Position numbers and translations under genes: made by a program. A DNA stretch of 64,000 bases, from positions 25,638 to 89,637 of the forward strand of contig JAIBAC010000001.1 of assembly GCA_019695375.1 (NCBI GenBank). Direction: 5' to 3'. Origin of the DNA: Acidimicrobiia bacterium (GTDB taxonomy: Bacteria; Actinomycetota; Acidimicrobiia; UBA2766). The notes beneath the pieces were generated by a model. It did no database searches, was not told where the DNA came from, and saw nothing but the letters and a program-made list of their open reading frames with translations. This document shows, piece after piece, positions 12,422 to 56,448 of the stretch. How positions within the stretch are numbered: the stretch's first letter is position 1; each line of letters starts with the position of its first letter.

Positions 12422-12805
12422 TCAGCTGCGGCGCGCGGTGCTCCCGCGCAGCACCCCGGCGACTTGCAGTGCGAGGTCGCGCGGTTCGAACGGTTTCGTC
12501 ACATAGGTGTCGGCGCCGGCGGCGAGGCCGGCCGCCACATCCGCGGCCTGGGCGCGGGCCGAGAGCATCAGGATCCCGACACGGGTCGTCGCCGGCTCAG
12601 CCCGCAGCGACCTGCACACGTCGATGCCGTCGACGCCGGGCAGCATCACGTCGAGCACGACGAGCTCGGCGCCGATGTCGTGGGCCACCGTCACAGCGCC
12701 GAGGCCGCGGTCGACGACGGTCACCTCGTGGCCCTCGAGCTCGAGCGTGAGGCGCACGAGCTTCTGCACCGAAGGGTCGTCCTCGACGACGAGAATGCGT
12801 GCCAC
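12422..12805 (-). CDS. stand-alone response regulator receiver domain protein (CheY-like)
   Basis: 127 aa; ILVVEDD, LVVLDVMLPGVDG, TKPF motifs. Confidence 0.8.
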   Translation of the reverse strand: MARILVVEDDPSVQKLVRLTLELEGHEVTVVDRGLGAVTVAHDIGAELVVLDVMLPGVDGIDVCRSLRAEPATTRVGILMLSARAQAADVAAGLAAGADTYVTKPFEPRDLALQVAGVLRGSTARRS

Positions 12806-12906
12806 ACGGCCAGCCTACGGGGCGATCGCGACGCTGCAGACGCCGGCCGCGTCGTCCACCTCCGAGGCGTGGCGGCGACGGGTGGCGGTTACACTCGCAG
12901 GTCGTT

Positions 12907-43918: not shown

Positions 43919-44710
43919 TCAGGCGTCGAGCGCTTCGCGGGCCATGGCGGGGTCGTCGGTGATCACCGCCGCCACCCCCGCTCGTGCGACGCCGGCGACA
44001 GCGGCGGCGTCGTTGAGGGTCCACGGTGCGACCCAGCATCCTGCCTCGCGCGCCGCGGACACGACTTCGGCTGCCCCGGCCGCCTCCAACGTCACGAGGT
44101 CCGGGTGGAGTCCGCGGCAGCCCGCGTCGACTGCAGCCGGCAGCGCCTCCGACGGTGCCCAACCGAGCGTGAGCAGCGCGACGGCGACCTCGGGCGCAGC
44201 CGCCACCGCGGCCCGCGCGAAGTCGATCGAGAACGACGACAGGAAGACACGGTCGGTCTCACCACGTGCGGCCACGAGGCGGGCGACGTCGCCGGCGAGG
44301 AGGGCGTCGTCGGCCTCGGCCTTGATCTCGACGTTGACCACCAGGCCTGCACCAGCGGCGAAGTCGAGGACGGATTCGAGGACCGGGACACCCACACCGC
44401 GGCCGCGGAAGGGGTGGTCGCCCGCGGGGCCGGCGAACGCCCAGCCTGCGTCCACGTTCGCGAGCCGGCTCGCCGTGGTCTCGGACACGCGCCCCGTCAC
44501 CCCTGTCGTGCGCTCCAGGGTCGGGTCGTGGATGACGACGATCGCACCGTCGGAGCTGCGGTGCACGTCGAGCTCGAAGCCGTCGGCACCGGCCGCCGCG
44601 GCCGCCTCGAAGCCGGCCATCGTGTTCTCCGGCGCCAGGCGGGGTGCACCGCGGTGCCCGACCACGAGCGGCCGCCCATACCCGTTGAGCAGGGCAAACA
44701 TGGACGACAA
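43919..44710 (-). CDS. glycerophosphodiester phosphodiesterase
   Basis: VVGHRGAP...ENTMAGF, ELDVH motifs of GDPD family. Confidence 0.8.
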   Translation of the reverse strand: MSSMFALLNGYGRPLVVGHRGAPRLAPENTMAGFEAAAAAGADGFELDVHRSSDGAIVVIHDPTLERTTGVTGRVSETTASRLANVDAGWAFAGPAGDHPFRGRGVGVPVLESVLDFAAGAGLVVNVEIKAEADDALLAGDVARLVAARGETDRVFLSSFSIDFARAAVAAAPEVAVALLTLGWAPSEALPAAVDAGCRGLHPDLVTLEAAGAAEVVSAAREAGCWVAPWTLNDAAAVAGVARAGVAAVITDDPAMAREALDA

Positions 44711-44850
44711 GCTACATCAACGGGGTTCGTGGGGCTCGCGGGCAGGATCTCGTGCGCGCGCTTGCGAAAGTTCACGAAGCGTTGACACTGGCGTCACCCG
44801 GCACTACGATCCCCAATGTTGCGCTCCACCCCACCAGGTGGCCACTGCCT

Positions 44851-44866
44851 TGTGAACGTTCTCACA
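44851..44866. promoter_or_regulatory. perfect CRP/Cmr-type binding site TGTGA-N6-TCACA
   Basis: TGTGAACGTTCTCACA ~78 bp upstream of whiB TTG start in a lower-GC promoter region. Confidence 0.6.
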
Positions 44867-44943
44867 ATCACAAGAGAGCAATTTCCCCTCACAAGGCCCA
44901 CCAAGACAATCCGGGGGGCAGGACAACCAGGAGGGCGGGTCCC

Positions 44944-45246
44944 TTGCAGACCTTGAACCGTTCAATTCAGGACCACGACGTCGTCGAGGAGCGCGAGTGG
45001 CGCGACTTCGCCGCTTGCCGTGACACAGACCCCGATCTCTTCTTCCCGGTCGGCACGACCGGAGTCGCGCTCGAGCAGATCAAGGCGTCCAAGCGCATCT
45101 GCAAGACGTGCGAGGTCCGTGCGGAGTGCCTTCAGTTCGCTCTGGCCACCAACCAGGAGTCGGGCGTCTGGGGTGGCACGAGCGAGGAGGAGCGCCGTGC
45201 GCTGCGCAAGTCCTGGCTCGCTCGCCAGCAGCGCCGCTCGGCCTGA
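44944..45246 (+). CDS. whiB1: WhiB-family Fe-S transcription factor (WhiB1-like)
   Basis: Cys pattern C-x24-C-x2-C-x5-C, FFPVG, GVWGG, ERRAL motifs; TTG start 9 nt after AGGAGG. Confidence 0.8.
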   Translation: MQTLNRSIQDHDVVEEREWRDFAACRDTDPDLFFPVGTTGVALEQIKASKRICKTCEVRAECLQFALATNQESGVWGGTSEEERRALRKSWLARQQRRSA

Positions 45247-45256
45247 GCTCCCACCT

Positions 45257-46786
45257 CTAGAGGCCTGACGCCCCCTCGAAGCCGTCGTCGACCGGGTCGA
45301 CCGCCAGCGCGTCGACCTGGGGGCTGAACGGCACGGGGAACGTCAACGTCACGCACCCCCCGGCGGCCTCGGCGCCGGCGCGGACGTCCATCTCCCCGTT
45401 GAGCTCGCCTGCGACGAGCGTTCGGACGATCTTGAGCCCGAGGCCGCCCTGGCCCTCCAGCTCGAAGCCGTCGGGGAACCCGCTGCCGTTGTCCTCGACC
45501 TCGACGCGCATCCAGCCGTCCTCGCGGCGCAGGCGAACCCGCACCCACCACGGCGCCACCTCGTCCTCGTCGCTGTCGAGGCCGGCGAAGCCGTGTTCGA
45601 CGGCGTTCTGCAGCAACTCGGTCAACACGACCGCGAGCGGCGTCGCCACCTCGGCGGGCAGGATCCCCGCCTCACCGTCGATCGCGAAGCGGATGCGACG
45701 CTCCCCGACGAGGCCTTCCTCGACGTCGCGCAGCAGCGGGTACAGGATGCTGTTGAACGGCAGCCAACCTCCTGCCTCCCGCGAGAGCATCTCGTGGACG
45801 AGCGCGATCGAGCGGATGCGGCGCACCGACTGCGCGAGCGCCTCCTGCGCCTCGTCGGAGTCCGTGCGCCGCGCCTGGAGCTGCAGCAGCGACGCGATGG
45901 TCTGCAGGTTGTTCTTCACCCGGTGGTGGATCTCCCTGATCGCCGCCTCCTTCGAGAGGAGGAGGCGGTCGCGGCGACGCAGCTCGGACACGTCACGCAC
46001 GAGCACGAGGCAGCCCGTCGACTGCCCGCCACGGATCAGGGGCAGGCCGAGCACGAGGATCGAGACGTCACCGTCCTCGAACTCGTCGCTCGCGGGCACG
46101 CCTGTCGCGACCGCCGAGTGCACGGCCGTGTCCGACACCCCCAGCTCCCGAAAAGTCACGTCGTCCATCGAACCGAACACGCCGAGACGGTGGAACGCGC
46201 TCGTCGCGTTCGGCGAACGGAACTTGATGCGCAGGTCGGCATCGAGGCGCACGAAGCCGTCACCGGCACGGACGGTGTCGGTGAGCACCGGCCCGCCGCT
46301 GCGGTACGGGAACGTGCCCTCGGAGATCATGATCGCCATGTCGCGCCCGGCGTCGGCGTAGGCCCTTTCCTGTGGGCTGGCGCGGCGCCGGTCCTCCCGC
46401 CAGCGCTCGTGTGAGAGAACCGCGACGAGAACGCCGTCGCGACGCACCGGGACCGCGTAGACGTCGATCGGACTGGGCCGGTGAGGCGGCGTCATCACCC
46501 CGACGGTCATCTCGCCGGTCTCCCACGCCTTCGCGACCCAGGGCCGTTCGTCAGGGTCGTACATGCGCCCGACGGGGTCCTCGAGGTAGGTGGTCTCGCT
46601 GTTGGTGGGCCGCTGGTGCGCGAGGACCACGAACGCGTCGCTCTCGGCTGCGGGCACGAACAGGAGGAGATCGGAGAAGTGCAGGTCGGCGAGCAGCTCC
46701 CACTCGGCGACGAGGTGCTGGAGATGGGAGATGTGGTACGGCGGCAGCCGGACGTGCTGACGTACGAGCTCGGCGATCGTGGACAC
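45257..46786 (-). CDS. pdtaS: sensor histidine kinase PdtaS-like (GAF-PAS-HisKA_2-HATPase)
   Basis: EIHHRVKNNLQ HisKA_2 motif, N-term STIAELVRQHVRLPP like PdtaS; GTG start 46786. Confidence 0.8.
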   Translation of the reverse strand: MSTIAELVRQHVRLPPYHISHLQHLVAEWELLADLHFSDLLLFVPAAESDAFVVLAHQRPTNSETTYLEDPVGRMYDPDERPWVAKAWETGEMTVGVMTPPHRPSPIDVYAVPVRRDGVLVAVLSHERWREDRRRASPQERAYADAGRDMAIMISEGTFPYRSGGPVLTDTVRAGDGFVRLDADLRIKFRSPNATSAFHRLGVFGSMDDVTFRELGVSDTAVHSAVATGVPASDEFEDGDVSILVLGLPLIRGGQSTGCLVLVRDVSELRRRDRLLLSKEAAIREIHHRVKNNLQTIASLLQLQARRTDSDEAQEALAQSVRRIRSIALVHEMLSREAGGWLPFNSILYPLLRDVEEGLVGERRIRFAIDGEAGILPAEVATPLAVVLTELLQNAVEHGFAGLDSDEDEVAPWWVRVRLRREDGWMRVEVEDNGSGFPDGFELEGQGGLGLKIVRTLVAGELNGEMDVRAGAEAAGGCVTLTFPVPFSPQVDALAVDPVDDGFEGASGL

Positions 46787-46898
46787 GCGCGGATCGTACC
46801 CGCGCCCGCACTCCTTTCGGCTGTGGTGCGGCCCGTGGCCTGCCGATGAGTCAGTCGTGGAGCACGAGGAGTCACAGGCAGGTCCTCCGGGACGGACG

Positions 46899-47744
46899 AT
46901 GATGGTGGTGGGTGCTCCGCCATCGGTGGCCGAGGTCGTGGACGACCGATGCAGGTCGCGGGCGGTCGTCGTGCGGCGCCGCCCGGCGACGGCGCTGGAC
47001 TGCGAGCGCGATCTAGACTTCGACGCCCCGTCGGTCCTCGTGCTCGGTGACTTCTTCGGTTCCGAGCCTGCGGCTCTGGTGCGACGGCTCAAGGCACCTC
47101 CGCACCGGGCGTTCCTGCCCGTGCTGGCGCTCGTCGACGGACCCGATCAGCGCCGTGACGTGTGGGCAGCAGGTGCTGACCTCGCACTCGAGCTGCCGTG
47201 TGCCGCCGACGACGTAGCGGCCGCCGTGGACGGACTTCTCGGCCGGTGCGAGCAGATAGAGCGTCAGCTCGGGGTCGACCTCGCCACCGGACTTCTCGCC
47301 CAGGAGGCCTTCCGCGACCGCCTCGACGAGGCGATCCGTTTCGTGCGCCGCTACCACGTGCCTGGCTGCGCAGGGGTGCTCGCCCTCGCGCCCGCCGACA
47401 CCCCACCCGCAGGTATGGCCGTGCCGTACACGTTGCGGTGGGCGGCATCGATCGCACGCGCATCGATGCGCGAGGTCGACGCTCTCGGTGTCGCAGGCAC
47501 CGACGCCATCGGCGCCGTGATGCTCGGCACGACGCTCGGCGGCGGGATCGTGGCGATGCGCCGCCTCCTCGAGCACATCCAGACCGCCACGGGCGCCGCG
47601 CACGAGGGCCTCCCACGCTTGACCCCCGCCACGGCGGCGGTGACGTCGTTCGGGAACTCCGGTGTCGAGCGCCTCATGGAGCGGTTCCACCGTTCGATCT
47701 CGTGCGCCCGCGAGCGGGAGCCGGGCACTCTCGTGATCCTCTGA
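46899..47744 (+). CDS. pseudo-receiver plus degenerate GGDEF-like domain protein (paralog 1)
   Basis: Domain order and motifs parallel to downstream paralog; GGDEF position reads GTDAI. Confidence 0.5.
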   Translation: MMVVGAPPSVAEVVDDRCRSRAVVVRRRPATALDCERDLDFDAPSVLVLGDFFGSEPAALVRRLKAPPHRAFLPVLALVDGPDQRRDVWAAGADLALELPCAADDVAAAVDGLLGRCEQIERQLGVDLATGLLAQEAFRDRLDEAIRFVRRYHVPGCAGVLALAPADTPPAGMAVPYTLRWAASIARASMREVDALGVAGTDAIGAVMLGTTLGGGIVAMRRLLEHIQTATGAAHEGLPRLTPATAAVTSFGNSGVERLMERFHRSISCAREREPGTLVIL

Positions 47745-47901
47745 CGGCGCAAGCGGCTGCAGGCCGCGCGGCCGTTGCCGGAACGGCGCTAGGGTCGTGC
47801 TACGGGGACCGAAGTTCGTCATCCGCTCAAGGACGCCGCCGAAGTGGCGATCATCTTGGGAGACGCGAAGACCGGTCGACCGACCGGGGGAAGAGGATCG
47901 A

Positions 47902-48801
47902 ATGTCGGGCGCAGGTGCCAACATCAAGAGCGGCCCCCGCCGGGTGCTGCTCGCCGCCGACTCGGCCCAGGACAGCTCCCAGTTCGCAAAAGCGCTCGAG
48001 CAGCTCGGCTGCCAGGTCTACATGTCGTCGCCGTCCAAGGTCGAGGAACTCGAGCAGCTCCTCGACCTGCTCGGACCGTCGGTCGTCGTGCTCACGGGCA
48101 GCTTCGACACCGACTTCCTCTCGGTCTACCGCCGCATCAAGACGCCGCCGCACCGGGCTCTGCTGCCGGTCATCTGCACGATCGGAGCCGGCGAGAGCAA
48201 GCTCGCGCTCATCCAGGCCGGTGTCGATGCCGTCATCGCCGAGCCGTGGGAGGCCGACGAGGTCAAGGCCGCTGTCGGCGGCATCCTCGAACGCGCTGCG
48301 ATCGTCGACCAGCACAAGGAGGTCGACGACCTCACAGGTGCTCTCACACCGTCGGCGACGAACGAACGCGTCGACTACGAGGTCTCGCGTGCGCGCCGCT
48401 ACCGCCGCCAGGGCTGCCTGTCGCTCGTCGACCTCGACAACTACGACAAGGTCCGCGAGGGTGTCGGCGAGCTCGCTGCCGACGCGGGAATGCGCCGCTT
48501 CAGCCAGATCGTGCGCCATGAGCTGCGCGAGACCGACATGCTCGGCCGCCTCGACGGCGACCGCTTCGCCGTGATCATGCCCGACACCGACCTGACCGGT
48601 GCGGTGCAGGCGATGCGCCGGGTGCTCGCGGTGATCGGATGCGCGACCGTCGACGTGCCCGGCGGACAGAAGGTGACCCTGGCGGCATCGGCGGGTGTCG
48701 GCGCGTTCGGCTCCGACGGACCCGAGGCGATCCTGTCACGGGTGTCCGGCGCCATCGACCGCGCCAAAGCCGCCGGCGGCGGCGCCCTCTTCACCGCCTG
48801 A
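47902..48801 (+). CDS. pseudo-receiver plus degenerate GGDEF domain protein (paralog 2)
   Basis: DDLTGAL...SLVDLDNYDKV...RLDGDRFAVIMPDT matches GGDEF fold with GGDEF replaced by DGDRF; N-terminal receiver-like fold lacking canonical Asp pocket. Confidence 0.6.
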   Translation: MSGAGANIKSGPRRVLLAADSAQDSSQFAKALEQLGCQVYMSSPSKVEELEQLLDLLGPSVVVLTGSFDTDFLSVYRRIKTPPHRALLPVICTIGAGESKLALIQAGVDAVIAEPWEADEVKAAVGGILERAAIVDQHKEVDDLTGALTPSATNERVDYEVSRARRYRRQGCLSLVDLDNYDKVREGVGELAADAGMRRFSQIVRHELRETDMLGRLDGDRFAVIMPDTDLTGAVQAMRRVLAVIGCATVDVPGGQKVTLAASAGVGAFGSDGPEAILSRVSGAIDRAKAAGGGALFTA

Positions 48802-49368: not shown

Positions 49369-50589
49369 TCAACCGAAGAGGTGGTCGCCGATCCGCAACA
49401 GGCCTCCGAGGTCGGCGATGTCCACCTCGAACTGGGGTACACGCGCGATGACGTCGGCGTTGCCGGTGGACAGCTCCGCCTGCATCTCGGCCTCGCGCTT
49501 GGCGACGACCGCGAAGTTCTCGAAGTTGTCGGCGATGGTGCGCAGGATCCCTGCCGTGCGCGCCTCGTCGCCGAAGGCGACCGGGTCGAGGGCGTCGAGG
49601 CGCTTGGCCGTCTCACCGGCGTTGGCGACGTCGTCGAGACGTTGCGCGACGGCCGCTGCCGCGGGGTCGTGGAGGAAGTCCGGCAGCGCGCGGTTCAGCA
49701 CCAGCGCGCCGAGGTCGAAGTCGAGCTCCTCGAGCTTGGTGCAGAAGAACTCCGCCTCGGCGAGCGGTGCCGACTCCAGGGTGCTCACGACGCAGAACGT
49801 CGTGCGGCGGTCGTGCAGCAGCTTCTCGACCTCGCGGGCGCGGGTCACGAAGCCCTCCTGCATCGACTGGAAGTTGAGGAAGAACTCTCCGAGACGGCGC
49901 ATGAAGTCTCCGCCGAGAAGGCGGTCGGCCATGCGGTAGAACGGCCGCGCGGCGAAGTCCAGCGCGCGCACGCCGCGTTTGCCGCCGACCTTGTACGGAA
50001 GCGTGAGCACACGCAGGAACCAGCCGCCGAAGAAGTCCGCCATCCGCTCCGGCGCCTCCAGGAAGTCGATGGCGTTGCGCGTGGGAGGCGTGTCGATGAC
50101 GATGAGGTCGTACTCGCCGGAGCGGTGCAGCTCGTAGAGGCGCTCCATCGCGATGTACTCGTGGGCGTTGATGAAGCGGCCGGTGATGTTGTGGTACAGC
50201 GGGTTCTCGAGGATCTTGTACGCCGTCTCCTCGTCCGGCGCGTACCGGTGCACGAGGTCGTCCCAGCTCCGTTTGGTGTCGAGCATCGCCGCGAACATGC
50301 GCCCGCGCGGCTCCACGCCCGCCTCACGGAACTTCTCAGTCGGCACCTCGCGCGCGACGTTGCCGATGCCCTCGAGACCGAGCGCCGTGGCGAGGCGGCG
50401 TGCGGGGTCGACCGTGAGCACGAGGACGGAACCGCCGAGCCGAGCCGCCGCCACTGCGGCCGCGGCCGCAGCCGCCGACGTCTTGCCGACCCCGCCGGAG
50501 CCGCAGAAGATCACCATCTCCTTGGACGCGAGAAGGTGCTCGAACGACGTGTGCACCGACGTGTCGTCGCGCCTGCGGGTCCGGCTCAC
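49369..50589 (-). CDS. ArsA-family (Get3-like) ATPase
   Basis: P-loop CGSGGVGKT, DTPPT motif; paired with second ArsA-like gene. Confidence 0.75.
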   Translation of the reverse strand: MSRTRRRDDTSVHTSFEHLLASKEMVIFCGSGGVGKTSAAAAAAAVAAARLGGSVLVLTVDPARRLATALGLEGIGNVAREVPTEKFREAGVEPRGRMFAAMLDTKRSWDDLVHRYAPDEETAYKILENPLYHNITGRFINAHEYIAMERLYELHRSGEYDLIVIDTPPTRNAIDFLEAPERMADFFGGWFLRVLTLPYKVGGKRGVRALDFAARPFYRMADRLLGGDFMRRLGEFFLNFQSMQEGFVTRAREVEKLLHDRRTTFCVVSTLESAPLAEAEFFCTKLEELDFDLGALVLNRALPDFLHDPAAAAVAQRLDDVANAGETAKRLDALDPVAFGDEARTAGILRTIADNFENFAVVAKREAEMQAELSTGNADVIARVPQFEVDIADLGGLLRIGDHLFG

Positions 50590-51581
50590 AGGCCCATCTC
50601 CGCTGCCAGAGCGTCTGCCACGAGGCGTGTCGCCCGCTTGCCGTGGCTGCGCGTGAACAGATACGGGACGTACATCATCGGGAGCGGCACCTCCGATCGG
50701 AGGCGCCGGATGTGCTCAACCCGCGTGCGCCGCAGCGTCACTGCGAGGCGGGCGGCTTCGAGGACCGGCTCGAGCGGAGCGCCGACCACCGATTCGGCTG
50801 CTTCGACGGCGTCGGCGTCACCGAGGCGATCGAACGTGTCTTCCTCGGCCGTCGTGAACAGCTCGGGCAGCACACGGTTGACCACGACGCCTGCGAGGCG
50901 GACGTCGAGTGCCTCCGTCGCGTGGTAGAGCTCGATCGTCTCCGAAACCGGCATCTCCTCGGGCGTCGCCACGATCAGCAGCGCCGTGCGGTTCGGATCG
51001 GCGAGCACCTCGCGCATCCAATCGGTCTGGGTGCGCACCATCCCGACCTCGAACAGTTCGTTGATCGCGGCCGGGGCGTCGAGCTGGCCGACGATGCGCC
51101 CCGTCGGGGCGGCGTCGACGACGATCAGGTCCCACTTGAAGTCGACACCTTCGGTCAGCGTCGCCTCGTACGCGATCTTGCCGACCGTGAGGATCTCCTT
51201 GACCCCCGGCGCCGCGTTGGCGACGAACTCGAAGATCGACGAGAGCGGCCCGATGCGGCTCATCATCCCCATCTTGAGGAAGATCTGGAGGTACTCGCGC
51301 AGTGAGTCCTCGGTGTTCATCGTCATCGACCACAGTCCGGGACGGATCTCGACGGGGTCGTAACCCACCCGCGGGTGCTCGAAGAAGTCGGTCAGGTTGC
51401 CCTTGGCGTCGACCTCGACCATGAGCGTGCGCTTGCCGAGGCTCGCCGCCAGCTCACCGATGGCAGCCGCGATGGTCGACTTGCCGGTGCCGCCCTTGCC
51501 GGTGACGAAGAGGAGCTGGCGACCGAGCAGATCGAGCGCAGACGTGGGGTCAGCGCTCTGTGCCTCGGGGACGGCGTTCAT
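50586..51581 (-). CDS. ArsA-family ATPase (second paralog)
   Basis: P-loop GKGGTGKST, VVDAAPTG motif; ATGA overlap with downstream paralog. Confidence 0.75.
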   Translation of the reverse strand: MNAVPEAQSADPTSALDLLGRQLLFVTGKGGTGKSTIAAAIGELAASLGKRTLMVEVDAKGNLTDFFEHPRVGYDPVEIRPGLWSMTMNTEDSLREYLQIFLKMGMMSRIGPLSSIFEFVANAAPGVKEILTVGKIAYEATLTEGVDFKWDLIVVDAAPTGRIVGQLDAPAAINELFEVGMVRTQTDWMREVLADPNRTALLIVATPEEMPVSETIELYHATEALDVRLAGVVVNRVLPELFTTAEEDTFDRLGDADAVEAAESVVGAPLEPVLEAARLAVTLRRTRVEHIRRLRSEVPLPMMYVPYLFTRSHGKRATRLVADALAAEMGL

Positions 51582-51632
51582 CCCAAGCAGGTTTGCAGGA
51601 TTCGTCGGTAACGGCGAAACCGTGCCCGTCCG

Positions 51633-51869
51633 TCACGCCATGAAACCGATACCGCCGGCCTTCGAGCCGTCCTCGACCTCGACGTAGGTGAGCTTGTCGG
51701 TGGGCACGACGACCGTCTTGCCCTTGGAGTCTGTGACCCGCACGAACTTGTCGGCGGCGCTGATCGCGCTGGTAAGCGACTCGAGCACGTCACCGGCTTC
51801 GCCTTCGACCTCGAGCTCGAGCTCCTTGGCGGAGAAAACCACGCCGAGATGAACCTTGGTCGTCGCCAT
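51633..51869 (-). CDS. DUF3107-family small protein
   Basis: 78 aa MATTKVHLGVVFSAKELELE... typical of actinobacterial DUF3107 found next to ArsA pair. Confidence 0.6.
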   Translation of the reverse strand: MATTKVHLGVVFSAKELELEVEGEAGDVLESLTSAISAADKFVRVTDSKGKTVVVPTDKLTYVEVEDGSKAGGIGFMA

Positions 51870-51902
51870 CGTCGAAAGCCTCTCAGGTCTGCGGGGTCGG
51901 TC

Positions 51903-53350: not shown

Positions 53351-54475
53351 TCACATGAGCTTCAGCTCAGGGCGGCGGATCCTGGTTCGCTGCGTGGCGG
53401 CGATCGCGTCCGCGATGCGGACGATCTCGGTGGCCGCAGGCGAGTCGGGGTGGGCTGCGACCACCGGGCGTCCCGCGTCGGCACCCTCACGCAGGACCTC
53501 GTCGATGGGGACCTGGCCCAGGAGCGGCACGTCGAGGTGCTCCGCGAGAGCCTCGCCGCCACCCTCTCCGAAGATGGCACGGTGGCTGCCGTCGGCCTCG
53601 ACGAGCCAGCTCATGTTCTCGATCACACCGAGAACCCGCTGGTTCGCCTTCTTCGCCATCGCGCCGGCTCGCACCGCGACCCGCTGCGCGGCGAGCTGCG
53701 GTGTCGTGACCACGACGACCTCGACCGTCGGCAGGAACTGCGAGAGCGAGATCGCTATGTCGCCCGTCCCCGGCGGCATGTCGACGAGGAGGTAGTCGAG
53801 CTCACCCCAGTACACGTCGACGAGGAACTGCTCCATCGCCTTGTGCAGCATCGGGCCGCGCCACACCACGGCCTGGTCCTCGTCGACGAAGTAGCCGATC
53901 GAGACGCAGCGCACACCGTGGACCTCCGGCGGCACGATCACGCGCCCGACGAGGTTGGGGGGACGGTCGACGCCGAGCATCCGCGGTATCGAGAAGCCCC
54001 AGACGTCGGCGTCGACGAGGCCCACTGCGGCGCCGTCCCGCGCAAGGGCGACGGCGAGGTTCGTGGTGATCGACGACTTCCCGACGCCGCCCTTGCCCGA
54101 GCTGACGGCGATCACGCGGGCGCGCGAAGCCCCCGATTGGAAGACGTTCTCACGGGTCTGACCCGGCATCGAGTCGGGAGCGACCTCGAGCACCTCCATC
54201 AGGCGGTCGAGCTCGGCGTCGTCCATCGTGTGCACGTCGAGCTCGACACGATCGCCGGCGGCAGCACCCACGGCGGTGGACTCGATCGAGGCGAGCAGGG
54301 CGTCGCGCCAGGGGTGGGAGTCCGAGGTGAGCGCGACCTCGACGGTCAGGCGGCCACCCTCGCGGCGCAGATCGGAGATCATCCCCAGCTCGACGATCGA
54401 GCGGCGCAGCTCGGGATCCTCCACTTCTGACAGCGCTTCGCGGACGGCTCCCAGTACGGCGTCGTCAGTTGCCAT
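53351..54475 (-). CDS. mrp: Mrp/ApbC-family Fe-S cluster carrier ATPase with N-terminal DUF59-like domain
   Basis: P-loop SGKGGVGKSS, CxxC-type motif region; start ATG 54475 within very long ORF. Confidence 0.85.
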   Translation of the reverse strand: MATDDAVLGAVREALSEVEDPELRRSIVELGMISDLRREGGRLTVEVALTSDSHPWRDALLASIESTAVGAAAGDRVELDVHTMDDAELDRLMEVLEVAPDSMPGQTRENVFQSGASRARVIAVSSGKGGVGKSSITTNLAVALARDGAAVGLVDADVWGFSIPRMLGVDRPPNLVGRVIVPPEVHGVRCVSIGYFVDEDQAVVWRGPMLHKAMEQFLVDVYWGELDYLLVDMPPGTGDIAISLSQFLPTVEVVVVTTPQLAAQRVAVRAGAMAKKANQRVLGVIENMSWLVEADGSHRAIFGEGGGEALAEHLDVPLLGQVPIDEVLREGADAGRPVVAAHPDSPAATEIVRIADAIAATQRTRIRRPELKLM

Positions 54476-54523
54476 GGGCAGCGTTTCCTCGCTCAGGGGG
54501 ACTGCCCGAAAACTATAATCACC

Positions 54524-55336
54524 ATGTCCGTAGGAGAAATTCGGCGCAGCACGCGCTGGAGTTCGTACCGAAAGATGCCCCCTACAGTGCCCTCGACGGC
54601 TCCACGCCCGACCCCGACACCACCCGACCCGCCTGCCCCGCAGGCCGGGTTGTCGGAGCGTCTCGACGAGGTGAGCCGCGCCTTCGGCGACCCCACACGG
54701 CGCGCCATCTACTTCGAGGTCGTCGACTCCGGCAGCACGACCGTCGCCCACATCGCCGACCGTTTCGGCGTGCACCCGAACGTCGCCCGCCACCACCTCG
54801 AACGCCTCCTCGTCGACGGATACCTCGAGGTCGCGGCGCCCGAGGCGCACAGCCGCCGCGGAGCCGGTAGGCCGTCCAAGCGCTACGTGCCCTCGGCCAA
54901 GGAGGTCGGCCTCGGCGTCGAGACCGCCCACGACGAGCACCTCCTCGTCGAACTGCTGCTCGCGACGCTCACGACGCTTGAACCCGCCGATGCGTCGCGC
55001 CTCGCCGAGCAGGCAGGCGCCGAGTACGGCCGGCGCCTCGCCTCTTCCTCGCTCACCCCCGACCAGCAGTGCGAGTCCCACGACCAGCTCCTGGCCTCGG
55101 TCGCGGCCTCCCTGTCGGACCACGGCTTCGCCGCGACGGCCAATCCCGGCAACGACGAGATCGTGAGCGAGGCGTGCCCGTTCGGCGAGATCGCCCAGCG
55201 GTTCCCCCACGTCGTCTGTGCCCTGGACCACGGGATGGTCCGCGGCATGGTCGAACACCTGAGCGGAACACCCGTCGAGATACGGCAGGGACGCAGCCGC
55301 GCCCAGGGTGACGCCGCCTGCGCCACGAGCTTCTGA
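54524..55336 (+). CDS. ArsR/SufR-type winged-helix regulator with C-terminal Cys-containing domain
   Basis: HTH (TVAHIADRFGVHPNVARHHLERLLVDGYL), C-terminal Cys residues (SEACPFG...VVCALDHG); directly upstream of cysteine desulfurase. Confidence 0.55.
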   Translation: MSVGEIRRSTRWSSYRKMPPTVPSTAPRPTPTPPDPPAPQAGLSERLDEVSRAFGDPTRRAIYFEVVDSGSTTVAHIADRFGVHPNVARHHLERLLVDGYLEVAAPEAHSRRGAGRPSKRYVPSAKEVGLGVETAHDEHLLVELLLATLTTLEPADASRLAEQAGAEYGRRLASSSLTPDQQCESHDQLLASVAASLSDHGFAATANPGNDEIVSEACPFGEIAQRFPHVVCALDHGMVRGMVEHLSGTPVEIRQGRSRAQGDAACATSF

Positions 55337-55338
55337 CC

Positions 55339-56448
55339 GTGACGGTCTACCTCGACCACGCCTCCGCGACCCCGATCGTGCCGCAAGCACGAGCCGCGAT
55401 GGCACCGTGGCTCGAACGCGCCGCCGATCCGGCGCGGGTCCACTCCGATGGGCGTGAGGCACGCGCGGCGGTGGAGGCGGCGCGCGACCAGGTCGGCGAG
55501 CGTCTCGGGGTGCGGCCTCGCGACGTGATCTTCACCGGTAGCGGCACCGAAGCACTGAACTGGGTCGTCTACGCCGCGGCAGGGCTCACCCCCAAGTCAC
55601 GCGGACCGTGGGGGCGGCGGATCGTGGTCACCGCCGTAGAGCACACCGCCGTCCTCGACGCAGCCCGCCTCGCTGCGACTCGTGCGGGCCTCGACCTCGT
55701 CGAGATCCCTGTGGACACGGACGGTTCGATCTCGCCGTTCGAGGTGCCGCCCGACACGGCACTGGTCGCATGCCAGCACGTCAACCACGAGACAGGCGTC
55801 GTGCAGCCGGTCGAGGAGGTCGCCGAGCGCTGTGCCGGTGCCGGCGCGCGGCTCCTCGTGGATGCGTGCCAGTCCGTCGGCGTCACCGTCCCACACGCTG
55901 ACTTCGTCGTCGTCTCGGGCCGCAAATGGGGCGGGCCGGCAGGTACCGGGGCGCTCGGGCTCGGGCGGCGCGTTCGCATCGACCCGCTCCTCGTGGGAGG
56001 CGAGCAGGAGCTGTTGCGCCGCGCAGGTGGTGAGAACGTCAGCGGCATCGTCGGCCTCGGTGCTGCGTGCGCCACACCGTTCCCCGACCTCGTGGGCCTG
56101 CGCGACGACCTCGTCGCGGGCCTGGGGTCGATCGCCGGCGTCGAAGTCGTCGGCCTCGGCGCACGCCGCGCTCCGCAGATCGTGTGCGCGACGGCGACTC
56201 CCCTAGGCGGCGAGGCTCTCCTGATCGGCCTCGACCGTGCCGGGATCATGGCGAACTCGGGATCGTCGTGCTCGGCGGAGCGCCTCGAACCGAGCCACGT
56301 GCTGCGAGCCATGGGAGCCGACGCTGACTCGTCACTGCGCTTCGGGCTCGGATGGGACACGACCGCGTCGGACATCGCCGCCGTGAACGACACCCTGCCC
56401 AGCCTCGTCGCCGAACTGCGCTCCCTGAGGGAGCACGCCGGTGCCTGA
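55339..56448 (+). CDS. cysteine desulfurase (class V aminotransferase, NifS/IscS-like)
   Basis: PLP Lys region (VVSGRKWGGPAGTG), active-site SGSSCS. Confidence 0.8.
   Translation: MTVYLDHASATPIVPQARAAMAPWLERAADPARVHSDGREARAAVEAARDQVGERLGVRPRDVIFTGSGTEALNWVVYAAAGLTPKSRGPWGRRIVVTAVEHTAVLDAARLAATRAGLDLVEIPVDTDGSISPFEVPPDTALVACQHVNHETGVVQPVEEVAERCAGAGARLLVDACQSVGVTVPHADFVVVSGRKWGGPAGTGALGLGRRVRIDPLLVGGEQELLRRAGGENVSGIVGLGAACATPFPDLVGLRDDLVAGLGSIAGVEVVGLGARRAPQIVCATATPLGGEALLIGLDRAGIMANSGSSCSAERLEPSHVLRAMGADADSSLRFGLGWDTTASDIAAVNDTLPSLVAELRSLREHAGA

Follow-up and report, generated by a model that had tools for sequence, protein, structure and literature searches.

In Streptomyces avermitilis, the NADH-sensing repressor Rex binds to and represses wblE through an operator (ROP) located in the leader of the gene, and NADH releases Rex from the DNA (Liu et al. 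2017, Sci Rep 7:44567, PMC5355995). The DNase I footprint on wblE extends from +108 to +135 and includes the ROP TCGTGAAAGCGTTCACAT together with a TTCACAA half-site, and EMSA, ChIP and qRT-PCR in a strain lacking rex also support the link between Rex and wblE (PMC5355995). Other Streptomyces Rex operators are those of cydA1, ATGTGAACGCGTTCACAA, and of rex itself, TTGTGCACGCGTTCACAA (PMC5355995), while the Rex operator of S. aureus has been reported as TTGTGAAW4TTCACAA (PMC2883068). In Mycobacterium tuberculosis, the whiB1 gene is controlled by CRP (Rv3676) through two imperfect sites, an activating one, AGTGAGATAGCCCACG, centred at −58.5 and a repressing one, CGTAACACTATTGACA, centred at −37.5 (Stapleton et al. 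2010, JBC 285:7016, PMC2844151). Both CRP sites lie upstream of the transcript start, which is itself found 109–110 nt before the start codon (PMC2844151). The histidine kinase PdtaS of the same organism is encoded by Rv3220c (PMC5676007).

Here we analysed a 64 kb stretch of DNA from an uncultured member of the Acidimicrobiia, hereafter the window, which carries a gene of this type at 44944–45246 on the plus strand. The gene encodes 100 aa from a TTG start and matches the Pfam family Whib (3.1e-25). Among solved Wbl structures, its product is closest to M. tuberculosis WhiB1 (5oay, 1.4e-26), followed by WhiB (WhiB2 type, 1.1e-18), WhiB4 (1.7e-11), WhiB3 (4e-10) and WhiB7 (3e-6), and in the alignment to WhiB1 all four cluster Cys and the SGVWGG turn are kept. 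By these comparisons the gene is a member of the WhiB1/WblE subfamily of Wbl proteins, in agreement with the sequence-only reading, which had called it whiB1-like. The TTG start after a strong AGGAGG, proposed in the same reading, also holds. Specifically, the AGGAGG Shine-Dalgarno sequence (44929–44934, plus strand) lies 9 nt before the TTG at 44944, the identical product was called from the same TTG on each of six independent metagenome contigs, and the N-terminal extension is retained in the relatives behind GGAGG, a motif found ahead of the whiB1 start in almost every related locus.

Downstream of whiB1, on the minus strand (45257–46786), lies a gene coding for a PdtaS-type cytoplasmic histidine kinase (GAF_PdtaS 1.3e-35, HisKA_2 5.6e-23, HATPase_c 3.2e-13). 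The two genes are convergent, with stop codons 10 nt apart, and the conservation of this gene order claimed earlier is borne out by the presence of the convergent pair in 72/80 acidimicrobial loci and in 65/68 actinomycete-type metagenome loci. The locus resembles that of M. tuberculosis in having an orthologous gene which adjoins pdtaS (Rv3219/Rv3220c by locus numbering) and a core of the GTGA..TCAC type. A receiver-only ORF at 12425–12814 of the window lacks an ANTAR domain; in M. tuberculosis the gene for PdtaR, the ANTAR response regulator that partners PdtaS, is not known to adjoin pdtaS either. A conserved link between pdtaS and a neighbouring GGDEF gene was rejected, as it is found in only 2 of 60 loci. 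On the other side of whiB1, a divergent gene (43919–44701, minus strand) codes for a glycerophosphodiester phosphodiesterase, GDPD (Pfam GDPD 2.5e-43, NCBIfam PRK09454 4.7e-43; 260 aa according to the gene callers on metagenome contigs). GDPD is the usual upstream neighbour of acidimicrobial whiB1, on the minus strand and 95–480 nt upstream of the box described below, in 53/73 related loci.

The intergenic region contains the perfect CRP-type box noted previously, TGTGAACGTTCTCACA (44851–44866). The sequence-only reading had placed it about 78 bp upstream of whiB; it is indeed upstream of that gene, but the distance between the end of the box and the TTG is 77 nt. That reading had also described a locally lower-GC promoter, and the GC content is 61.8% in the intergenic region and 52.6% at 44850–44925 versus 70% in the window. 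When the motif scan for other TGTGA-N6-TCACA sites suggested there was carried out, no second perfect site emerged in the 64 kb; dinucleotide shuffles give 0.05 expected perfect boxes in the window, with at least one in 5 of 100 shuffles.

This box is not confined to a single genome. Of the 80 acidimicrobial species compared, 73 have it at most 300 nt upstream of whiB1 (57 perfect and 16 one-mismatch boxes), which confirms the site conservation put forward earlier, while no perfect and five one-mismatch boxes were found in the remaining 804,287 positions of these loci. Moreover, the box and a plus-strand promoter persist in loci where the upstream gene is co-directional with whiB1 (the box in L010, L011, L012, L015, L019, L020, L022 and L024), so that the box belongs to whiB1, and the possibility that CRP acts through it on the divergent GDPD gene was rejected. 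Inspection by eye of the aligned loci revealed no conserved minus-strand −10 element for GDPD. The box is a cis-element of whiB1, both conserved and old.

The position of the box with respect to the promoter separates this locus from the M. tuberculosis model. A promoter scan predicted a −35 hexamer TTGACA (44782–44787, plus strand) and a −10 hexamer TACGAT (44805–44810, plus strand); with 10/12 matches and a 17-nt spacer, this is the only promoter match in the region 44650–45300 (0.0 in shuffles). Both elements are conserved in relatives, as TTG and TANNNT respectively. A TANNNT is found 36–70 nt upstream of the box in 61/72 distinct acidimicrobial loci, and a TTG hexamer lies 16–18 nt before the TANNNT in 60/72, compared to 7/1600 random control positions. 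In the 60 loci with the TTG hexamer, the 3′ end of the −10 element precedes the box by 35–62 nt (median 45.5). The whiB1 transcript would accordingly start at about 44817 in the window, with a predicted leader of about 127 nt, comparable in length to the 109–110 nt of M. tuberculosis. Calculated from the conserved promoter, the predicted box centre falls between +36.5 and +63.5 among relatives and at about +41.5 in the window. On its downstream side, a gap of 18–80 nt containing GGAGG separates the box from the start codon across relatives, and the gap is only 18–22 nt in L012, L013, L014, L032, L058, L062, L067, L068 and L084. We place the box in the transcribed leader, which is the position of a repressor, because this predicted promoter is conserved upstream of it and because the box lies close ahead of the start codon and its GGAGG.

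This arrangement bears directly on the proposal that the site is controlled by CRP and cAMP as in M. tuberculosis, where two imperfect sites lie upstream of the transcript start, whereas the window has one perfect palindrome downstream of the predicted promoter. Some relatives have the box just 18–23 nt ahead of the start codon, and the Shine-Dalgarno sequence falls within that gap; there, CRP cannot activate from a class I or II position, and CRP as an activator of this type was rejected on the geometry of the box downstream of the conserved −10. A different role for a protein of the CRP/FNR family, in which a CRP/GlxR or Cmr orthologue on the leader would repress or act as a roadblock, unlike the class I activator of M. 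tuberculosis whiB1, needs to be weighed separately; we regard it as unlikely. In its favour, the window site is a perfect TGTGA-N6-TCACA, all 10 core bases of which agree with the CRP/GlxR consensus, and CRP acts directly on the whiB1 gene of M. tuberculosis, where the second site is repressing (PMC2844151). Even so, a leader position, so close to the start codon in several species, is unlike the −58.5 and −37.5 of the mycobacterial sites.

By comparing 71 distinct sites, we obtained the pattern W-TGTGA-A-N4-W-TCACA-A, in which the A following TGTGA is conserved in 63/71 sites and the A on the right flank in 61/71, with T at the latter position in only 2; both features speak against a CRP-type site. 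Pointing in the opposite direction, A precedes TGTGA in 42/71 sites, where the Rex consensus has T and E. coli CRP-type sites have A. Similarly, the base before TCACA is A instead of the T of the Rex consensus in 31/71 sites, so that an ATCACA right half is present in about 44% of them. Taken together, the extended flanks of the window site fit Rex better than CRP. The 18-bp inverted repeat formed by the box and one flanking base per side, TTGTGAACGTTCTCACAA (44850–44867), matches the Rex consensus TTGTGAANNNNTTCACAA (TTGTGAA-N4-TTCACAA) at 13 of the 14 defined positions, and 65/71 related sites have at most two mismatches to this consensus; elsewhere in the window there is no second site with up to three mismatches. 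In addition, an extra half-site, ATCACAA (44867–44873, plus strand, read from the sequence), directly abuts the operator and is also present in L007. We therefore favour the palindrome as a candidate operator for the NADH-sensing repressor Rex on whiB1, a reading which we consider probable.

Comparison with the respiratory Rex operators of Streptomyces and S. aureus is consistent with this assignment, as the window site shares their 18-bp consensus. Compared with the cydA1 operator, its only changes are at the first base, at the four central positions and at a single position in the right half, and all these operators sit where a repressor would, inside the promoter or downstream of it. They differ in their targets, since the respiratory operators precede operons for respiratory or fermentative enzymes and the window site precedes a regulator gene; no respiratory or fermentative operons with Rex operators were found in the window.

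The closest match, however, is the wblE operator of S. avermitilis. We collected 80 metagenome loci of actinomycete type, whose WblE proteins are 73–98% identical to the S. coelicolor protein and which provided 75 usable leaders, and found TCGTGAA-N4-TTCACAA 42–120 nt before the start codon in 51 of the 75. One of these loci, L087 (98% identical WblE), carries TCGTGAAAGCGTTCACAT, exactly the sequence footprinted in S. avermitilis, followed by TCACAAG and with pdtaS convergent downstream, and the window has the same layout, with TTGTGAACGTTCTCACAA followed by TCACAAG. Judged by their sequences, the window box and the actinomycete wblE leader element are homologous. The two systems thus have in common an orthologous target (wblE being of the whiB1 type), an operator placed in the leader, after the transcript start, which is of the TTGTGAA-N4-TTCACAA type (an 18-bp inverted repeat) and is abutted by an extra TCACAA half-site, and the convergent pdtaS gene, the last as seen in L087. 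They are distinguished by the left half, which is TTGTGAA in the window but TCGTGAA in actinomycetes, and by the position, centred at about +41.5 on the shorter predicted leader of the window versus +108 to +135 for the S. avermitilis footprint. Moreover, the window comes from another class, the Acidimicrobiia, where the site is a predicted operator. That the homologous Streptomyces element is experimentally a Rex site (PMC5355995) weighs against CRP as its reader here. With the extended motif, the half-site and the position all matching a footprinted Rex operator, the CRP/cAMP assignment on the M. tuberculosis model finds no support, and what had been proposed as an ancient cAMP–WhiB1 circuit is best read as a new member of the known Rex circuit.

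The scarcity of similar sites leads in the same direction. Outside the whiB1 leaders, 868 kb of flanking acidimicrobial DNA, which for the purpose of estimating regulon size is a limited and biased sample, contained 0 perfect, 5 one-mismatch and 87 two-mismatch matches to the core, against 0.4, 12.5 and 164 expected by chance. The lack of an excess of box-like sites in this sample is unexpected for a global regulator of the CRP/GlxR type, and the sparse matches fit a small regulon, such as that of Rex, better. The same flanking DNA and the rest of the window yielded no further Rex operators either, and the classical Rex target genes were not identified in this sample; that the window has no second operator in front of such a gene counts against the Rex reading.

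A search for the regulator genes themselves was carried out. Neither the window nor any fetched locus contains a crp gene, and a tblastn search combined with a Rex HMM detected no rex gene in the window or in the 166 fetched loci. As for an acidimicrobial Rex protein, the S. coelicolor Rex query returned only Streptomyces; representatives at 50% identity gave 150 Rex proteins without taxonomy; the named clusters were only Arsenicicoccus, Luteococcus and Micrococcales; and a profile of 18 divergent high-GC representatives gave consensus-like Actinomycetes (Jiangella, Streptomyces). A search of the available papers on Rex, CRP or WhiB in Acidimicrobiia found nothing relevant. Because neither a rex nor a crp gene was located, the regulator of whiB1 is one that we infer: Rex would be the protein on the site, and the organism would presumably encode it. 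The same negative searches, together with flanks that fit neither the Rex nor the CRP consensus perfectly, would also suit another dimeric helix-turn-helix regulator, specific to Acidimicrobiia and sharing the TGTGA/TCACA core by chance. Such a regulator is highly improbable, as it would require a coincidence with the Streptomyces Rex site in core, spacing, A/T flanks, half-site, target gene and leader position.

A second element lies directly 5′ of the box, namely a GC-rich leader hairpin (GCG..CCACC-loop-GGUGG..UGC, 44821–44848, plus strand). Its fold, calculated on 44817–44870, is unexceptional when considered alone (z = −0.84). Across 32 related leaders, all 8 of the 8 stem pairs changed on both sides with 78% of the cells paired, giving a covariation score of 0.317 compared to 0.151 in shuffles (0/500 reach the score), and cognate hairpin halves pair better than non-cognate ones (0/10000 permutations). 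Under the promoter model both the hairpin and the palindrome are transcribed, and with pdtaS adjoining whiB1 it is conceivable that the two act together as a structured 5′ UTR RNA, in the form of two tandem stem-loops or a three-way junction, serving as an attenuator or as the site of an RNA-binding regulator such as an ANTAR partner of PdtaS. The three-way junction was suggested by the minimum-free-energy folds of one large clade, and it was rejected because its closing helix fails the comparison of cognate with non-cognate halves (p ~0.35). In addition, RNAalifold of the leaders returns only the invariant palindrome, and no Rfam family matches the leader, even at E values up to 10. ANTAR targets show an A1/G4 hexaloop pattern, which in an informal comparison was missing from the leader loops.

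The palindrome itself behaves in a different way from the hairpin. It never covaries, four of its five pairs being invariant and one varying on one side only, and its mismatched variants are without compensation. A stem constrained by RNA structure would show the reverse of this invariant stem and variable loop, and the invariant palindrome looks like a DNA site read by a protein. Since the homologous Streptomyces element is, in addition, explained by footprinting at the DNA level (PMC5355995), we hold a joint role of the palindrome and the hairpin as leader RNA to be very doubtful.

On the Rex reading, the following mechanism can be proposed. A sigma-A-type promoter (TTGACA at 44782, TACGAT at 44805) would start whiB1 transcription near 44817, and a Rex dimer would sit on TTGTGAACGTTCTCACAA (44850–44867) and on the adjacent TCACAA half-site, about 33–57 nt downstream of the start. 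Bound Rex would block RNA polymerase, probably as a roadblock, and whiB1 would stay low while NADH/NAD+ is low. Upon a rise in NADH, caused by oxygen limitation or respiratory inhibition, NADH-bound Rex would come off the DNA and whiB1 would be derepressed. In this way the amount of WhiB1, an Fe-S regulator sensitive to NO, would be coupled to the respiratory redox poise.

As the core is common to Rex and CRP sites, the leader operator could also be an ancestral element of the phylum, readable by either regulator, with Rex as its reader in Streptomyces, and presumably also in Acidimicrobiia, and with control passed to CRP in lineages such as the mycobacteria; alternatively, Rex and CRP could compete here, so that whiB1 would integrate NADH and cAMP. 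In this joint scheme the covarying hairpin would provide a second, RNA-level control of whiB1, possibly tied to PdtaS/ANTAR. We consider it a rather improbable scheme.

Rex repression of the orthologous gene in Streptomyces is already known, and the locus described here does not reveal a new kind of mechanism. An annotator following the M. tuberculosis example would assign a perfect "CRP box" upstream of whiB1 to cAMP control, while its position and extended sequence point to control by Rex in response to NADH/NAD+; as the sites of the two regulators share their core, comparable errors are probable in other high-GC genomes. Should the Rex reading be true, the Rex–WhiB1/WblE link reaches beyond the one Streptomyces species with experimental proof, with the same element in the leader of the same gene and next to the same kinase in the deep-branching, largely uncultured class Acidimicrobiia. 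This would suggest that the Actinomycetota have long tied WhiB1, an essential regulator, to their respiratory redox poise.

The whiB1-type gene, read from the sequence as 100 codons (44944-45246, + strand), has a TTG start at 44944 with an AGGAGG between box and start codon (44929-44934, +). The identical gene is present in six metagenome contigs, each called from the same TTG. Its product carries a Wbl domain that retains the GVWGG turn and all four cysteines; M. tuberculosis WhiB1 gives the best alignment (1.4e-26), and other Wbl classes score lower. The nearest relative by WhiB is Acidimicrobiia bacterium STL-ACT9 (94% identity), and the source organism is uncultured and belongs to a class that branches deeply within Actinomycetota. 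Downstream, a convergent PdtaS-type kinase gene (45257-46786; GAF_PdtaS, HisKA_2 and HATPase_c domains) ends 10 nt past the whiB stop; pdtaS is convergent downstream in 72/80 acidimicrobial loci. Upstream, a GDPD (glycerophosphodiester phosphodiesterase) gene (43919-44701, - strand) is divergent, as in 53 of 73 such loci; with this usual neighbour, gdpd-whiB1-pdtaS forms a conserved trio in Acidimicrobiia. The intergenic region is lower in GC than the window (61.8% versus 70%).

Two receiver/GGDEF-like paralogues on the + strand are divergent from pdtaS: one at 46779-47744, which overlaps the pdtaS start and lacks a Pfam match, and one at 47797-48801 (GGDEF, 3e-18). GGDEF genes adjoin pdtaS in only 2/60 relatives; mycobacterial PdtaS has been reported to bind c-di-GMP (bioRxiv 10.1101/615575). 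Beyond them lie an ArsA-like ATPase gene pair, a DUF3107 gene and a Mrp/NUBPL Fe-S carrier gene (49372-51632, 51636-51902 and 53354-55531, all - strand). In M. tuberculosis an ArsA-like pair is located between crp and whiB4; the window, where this pair lies, contains neither crp nor a second wbl gene.

The box TGTGAACGTTCTCACA (44851-44866) is the sole perfect TGTGA-N6-TCACA in the window, with 0.05 expected, and ends 77 nt before the TTG; the sequence-only reading had its upstream position right and its distance, about 78 bp, slightly off. Since the box, the gene, the TTG after a strong AGGAGG, the pdtaS neighbour and the lower local GC were each found, the sequence-level observations of that reading were all correct. 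Conservation of site and gene order, also proposed there, was borne out by scanning one genome per species (80 loci, all from Acidimicrobiia or Acidimicrobiales metagenome-assembled genomes). Specifically, within 300 nt upstream of whiB1 the box was perfect in 57 species, had one mismatch in 16 and two in 4, whereas elsewhere in these loci (804,287 positions) there were no perfect and five one-mismatch matches. In the acidimicrobial sites neither TGTGA nor TCACA varies, while the central bases are free to do so. Because the box is also kept where the upstream gene is co-directional, it belongs to whiB1. Its conservation is real and deep.

The box is absent from the relatives L026 and L061, the former a lower-GC relative with a different palindrome (AACACATAGTGTT) in its leader. 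One clade (L035, L064, L066, L071, L076, L080 and L082) carries two boxes: the distal one, TGTGATCGTGATCACA, has its end 3 nt upstream of a -35-like hexamer, TTGCAG; the proximal one, TGTGAT..TTCACG, lies ~130 nt farther downstream, with the usual -10 missing before it.

When the upstream regions were aligned, a conserved promoter emerged, composed of a TTG-type -35 (TTGCAA, TTGCCA, TTGACA), 16-18 nt and TANNNT, in 60/72 distinct loci, compared to 7/1600 random positions. The 3' end of TANNNT lies 35-62 nt (median 45.5) upstream of the box. In the window, the predicted elements TTGACA (44782-44787, +) and TACGAT (44805-44810, +), separated by 17 nt, are the sole match of a generic promoter scan in 44650-45300. 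Assuming that transcription starts at the seventh base past the -10, the box would be centred at +41.5, and at +36.5 to +63.5 in relatives. In addition, the box end is 18-80 nt from the start codon in acidimicrobial loci (commonest 37-40) and this gap contains GGAGG, so that a box centred at -41.5 or farther upstream is impossible in many species. The box is thus predicted to lie in the transcribed leader at variable spacing from the promoter, a geometry which argues for a repressor and not for a CRP-type activator.

The likeness to the mycobacterial whiB1 promoter did not hold. In M. tuberculosis, whose whiB1 mRNA carries a 109-110-nt leader, two imperfect CRP sites are both located upstream of the transcript start, the activating CRP1 (AGTGAGATAGCCCACG) at -58.5 and the repressing CRP2 (CGTAACACTATTGACA) at -37.5 (PMC2844151); the acidimicrobial arrangement differs in site position, number and quality.

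The flanks of the core are also conserved. Extended to both sides, 71 distinct acidimicrobial sites give the motif W-TGTGA-A-N4-W-TCACA-A, with A following TGTGA in 63 and TCACA in 61. Rex, a repressor that senses NADH, has the consensus TTGTGAA-N4-TTCACAA (PMC5355995; PMC2883068), to which TTGTGAACGTTCTCACAA (44850-44867) in the window conforms at 13/14 defined positions. In Streptomyces avermitilis, Rex, which NADH frees from DNA, directly represses wblE, the whiB1 orthologue, as supported by EMSA, ChIP and transcript levels in a rex deletion strain; its DNase I footprint covers +108 to +135 of the leader, over TCGTGAAAGCGTTCACAT and a TTCACAA half-site (PMC5355995). Similarly, in the window an extra half-site ATCACAA (44867-44873) directly abuts the 18-bp operator. 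Among 80 actinomycete-type metagenome loci (L087-L166; WblE sharing 73-98% identity with that of S. coelicolor), TCGTGAA-N4-TTCACAA was found in 51/75 usable wblE leaders, 42-120 nt before the start codon, and pdtaS is convergent downstream in 65/68. L087 (98% WblE) carries the exact footprinted S. avermitilis sequence followed by TCACAAG, a layout shared by the window (TCACAAG at 44868-44874). All together, motif, leader position and the homologous wblE element make the acidimicrobial element the counterpart, in both location and sequence, of a Rex operator defined by experiment in the orthologous gene.

In these actinomycete-type leaders the left half-site is nearly always TCGTGAA, with C in place of the T of the Rex consensus and acidimicrobial sites, GC flanks are conserved on both sides, and many contain a CCCGGG-type hairpin ~25 nt upstream of the operator.

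A GC-rich stem-loop (44821-44848) lies directly 5' of the operator in the window and at the equivalent position in the related acidimicrobial loci, its sequence varying among clades with pairing kept. Across 32 leaders, two-sided changes occurred in 8/8 stem pairs and 78% of cells were paired, against 26-42% in slid controls; the covariation score was 0.317 versus 0.151 in shuffles (0/500), and cognate halves paired better than non-cognate ones (0/10000 permutations). The adjoining palindrome, in contrast, showed no covariation. The leader had no match in Rfam, and the closing helix of a candidate three-way junction was not supported. Since a polymerase stalled at the operator would have transcribed the hairpin incompletely, action of the hairpin on the full-length leader is more likely.

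Neither rex nor crp genes were found, whether in the window or among the fetched loci, and we infer which protein binds here from the site itself, its location and its homology. Repression through the same core by a CRP-family protein could also occur; we consider this rather unlikely, the flanks and the homology pointing to Rex. The motif scan bears on the same question: in 868 kb of acidimicrobial DNA outside whiB1 leaders (80 loci plus window), sites with zero, one and two mismatches to the core numbered 0, 5 and 87, versus 0.4, 12.5 and 164 expected under a first-order Markov model, with no excess over chance. This density fits a few-target regulator better than a global CRP/GlxR, a weak argument because the sample is small and biased. 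Near-matches are about half as frequent as predicted, which could reflect avoidance or mere oligonucleotide bias.

In conclusion, the circuit probably runs from Rex (NADH/NAD+) to WhiB1, and not from cAMP-CRP to WhiB1 as the sequence-only reading had proposed. As the link between Rex and wblE is already documented in Streptomyces, the acidimicrobial whiB1 site would be a further case of a known circuit.
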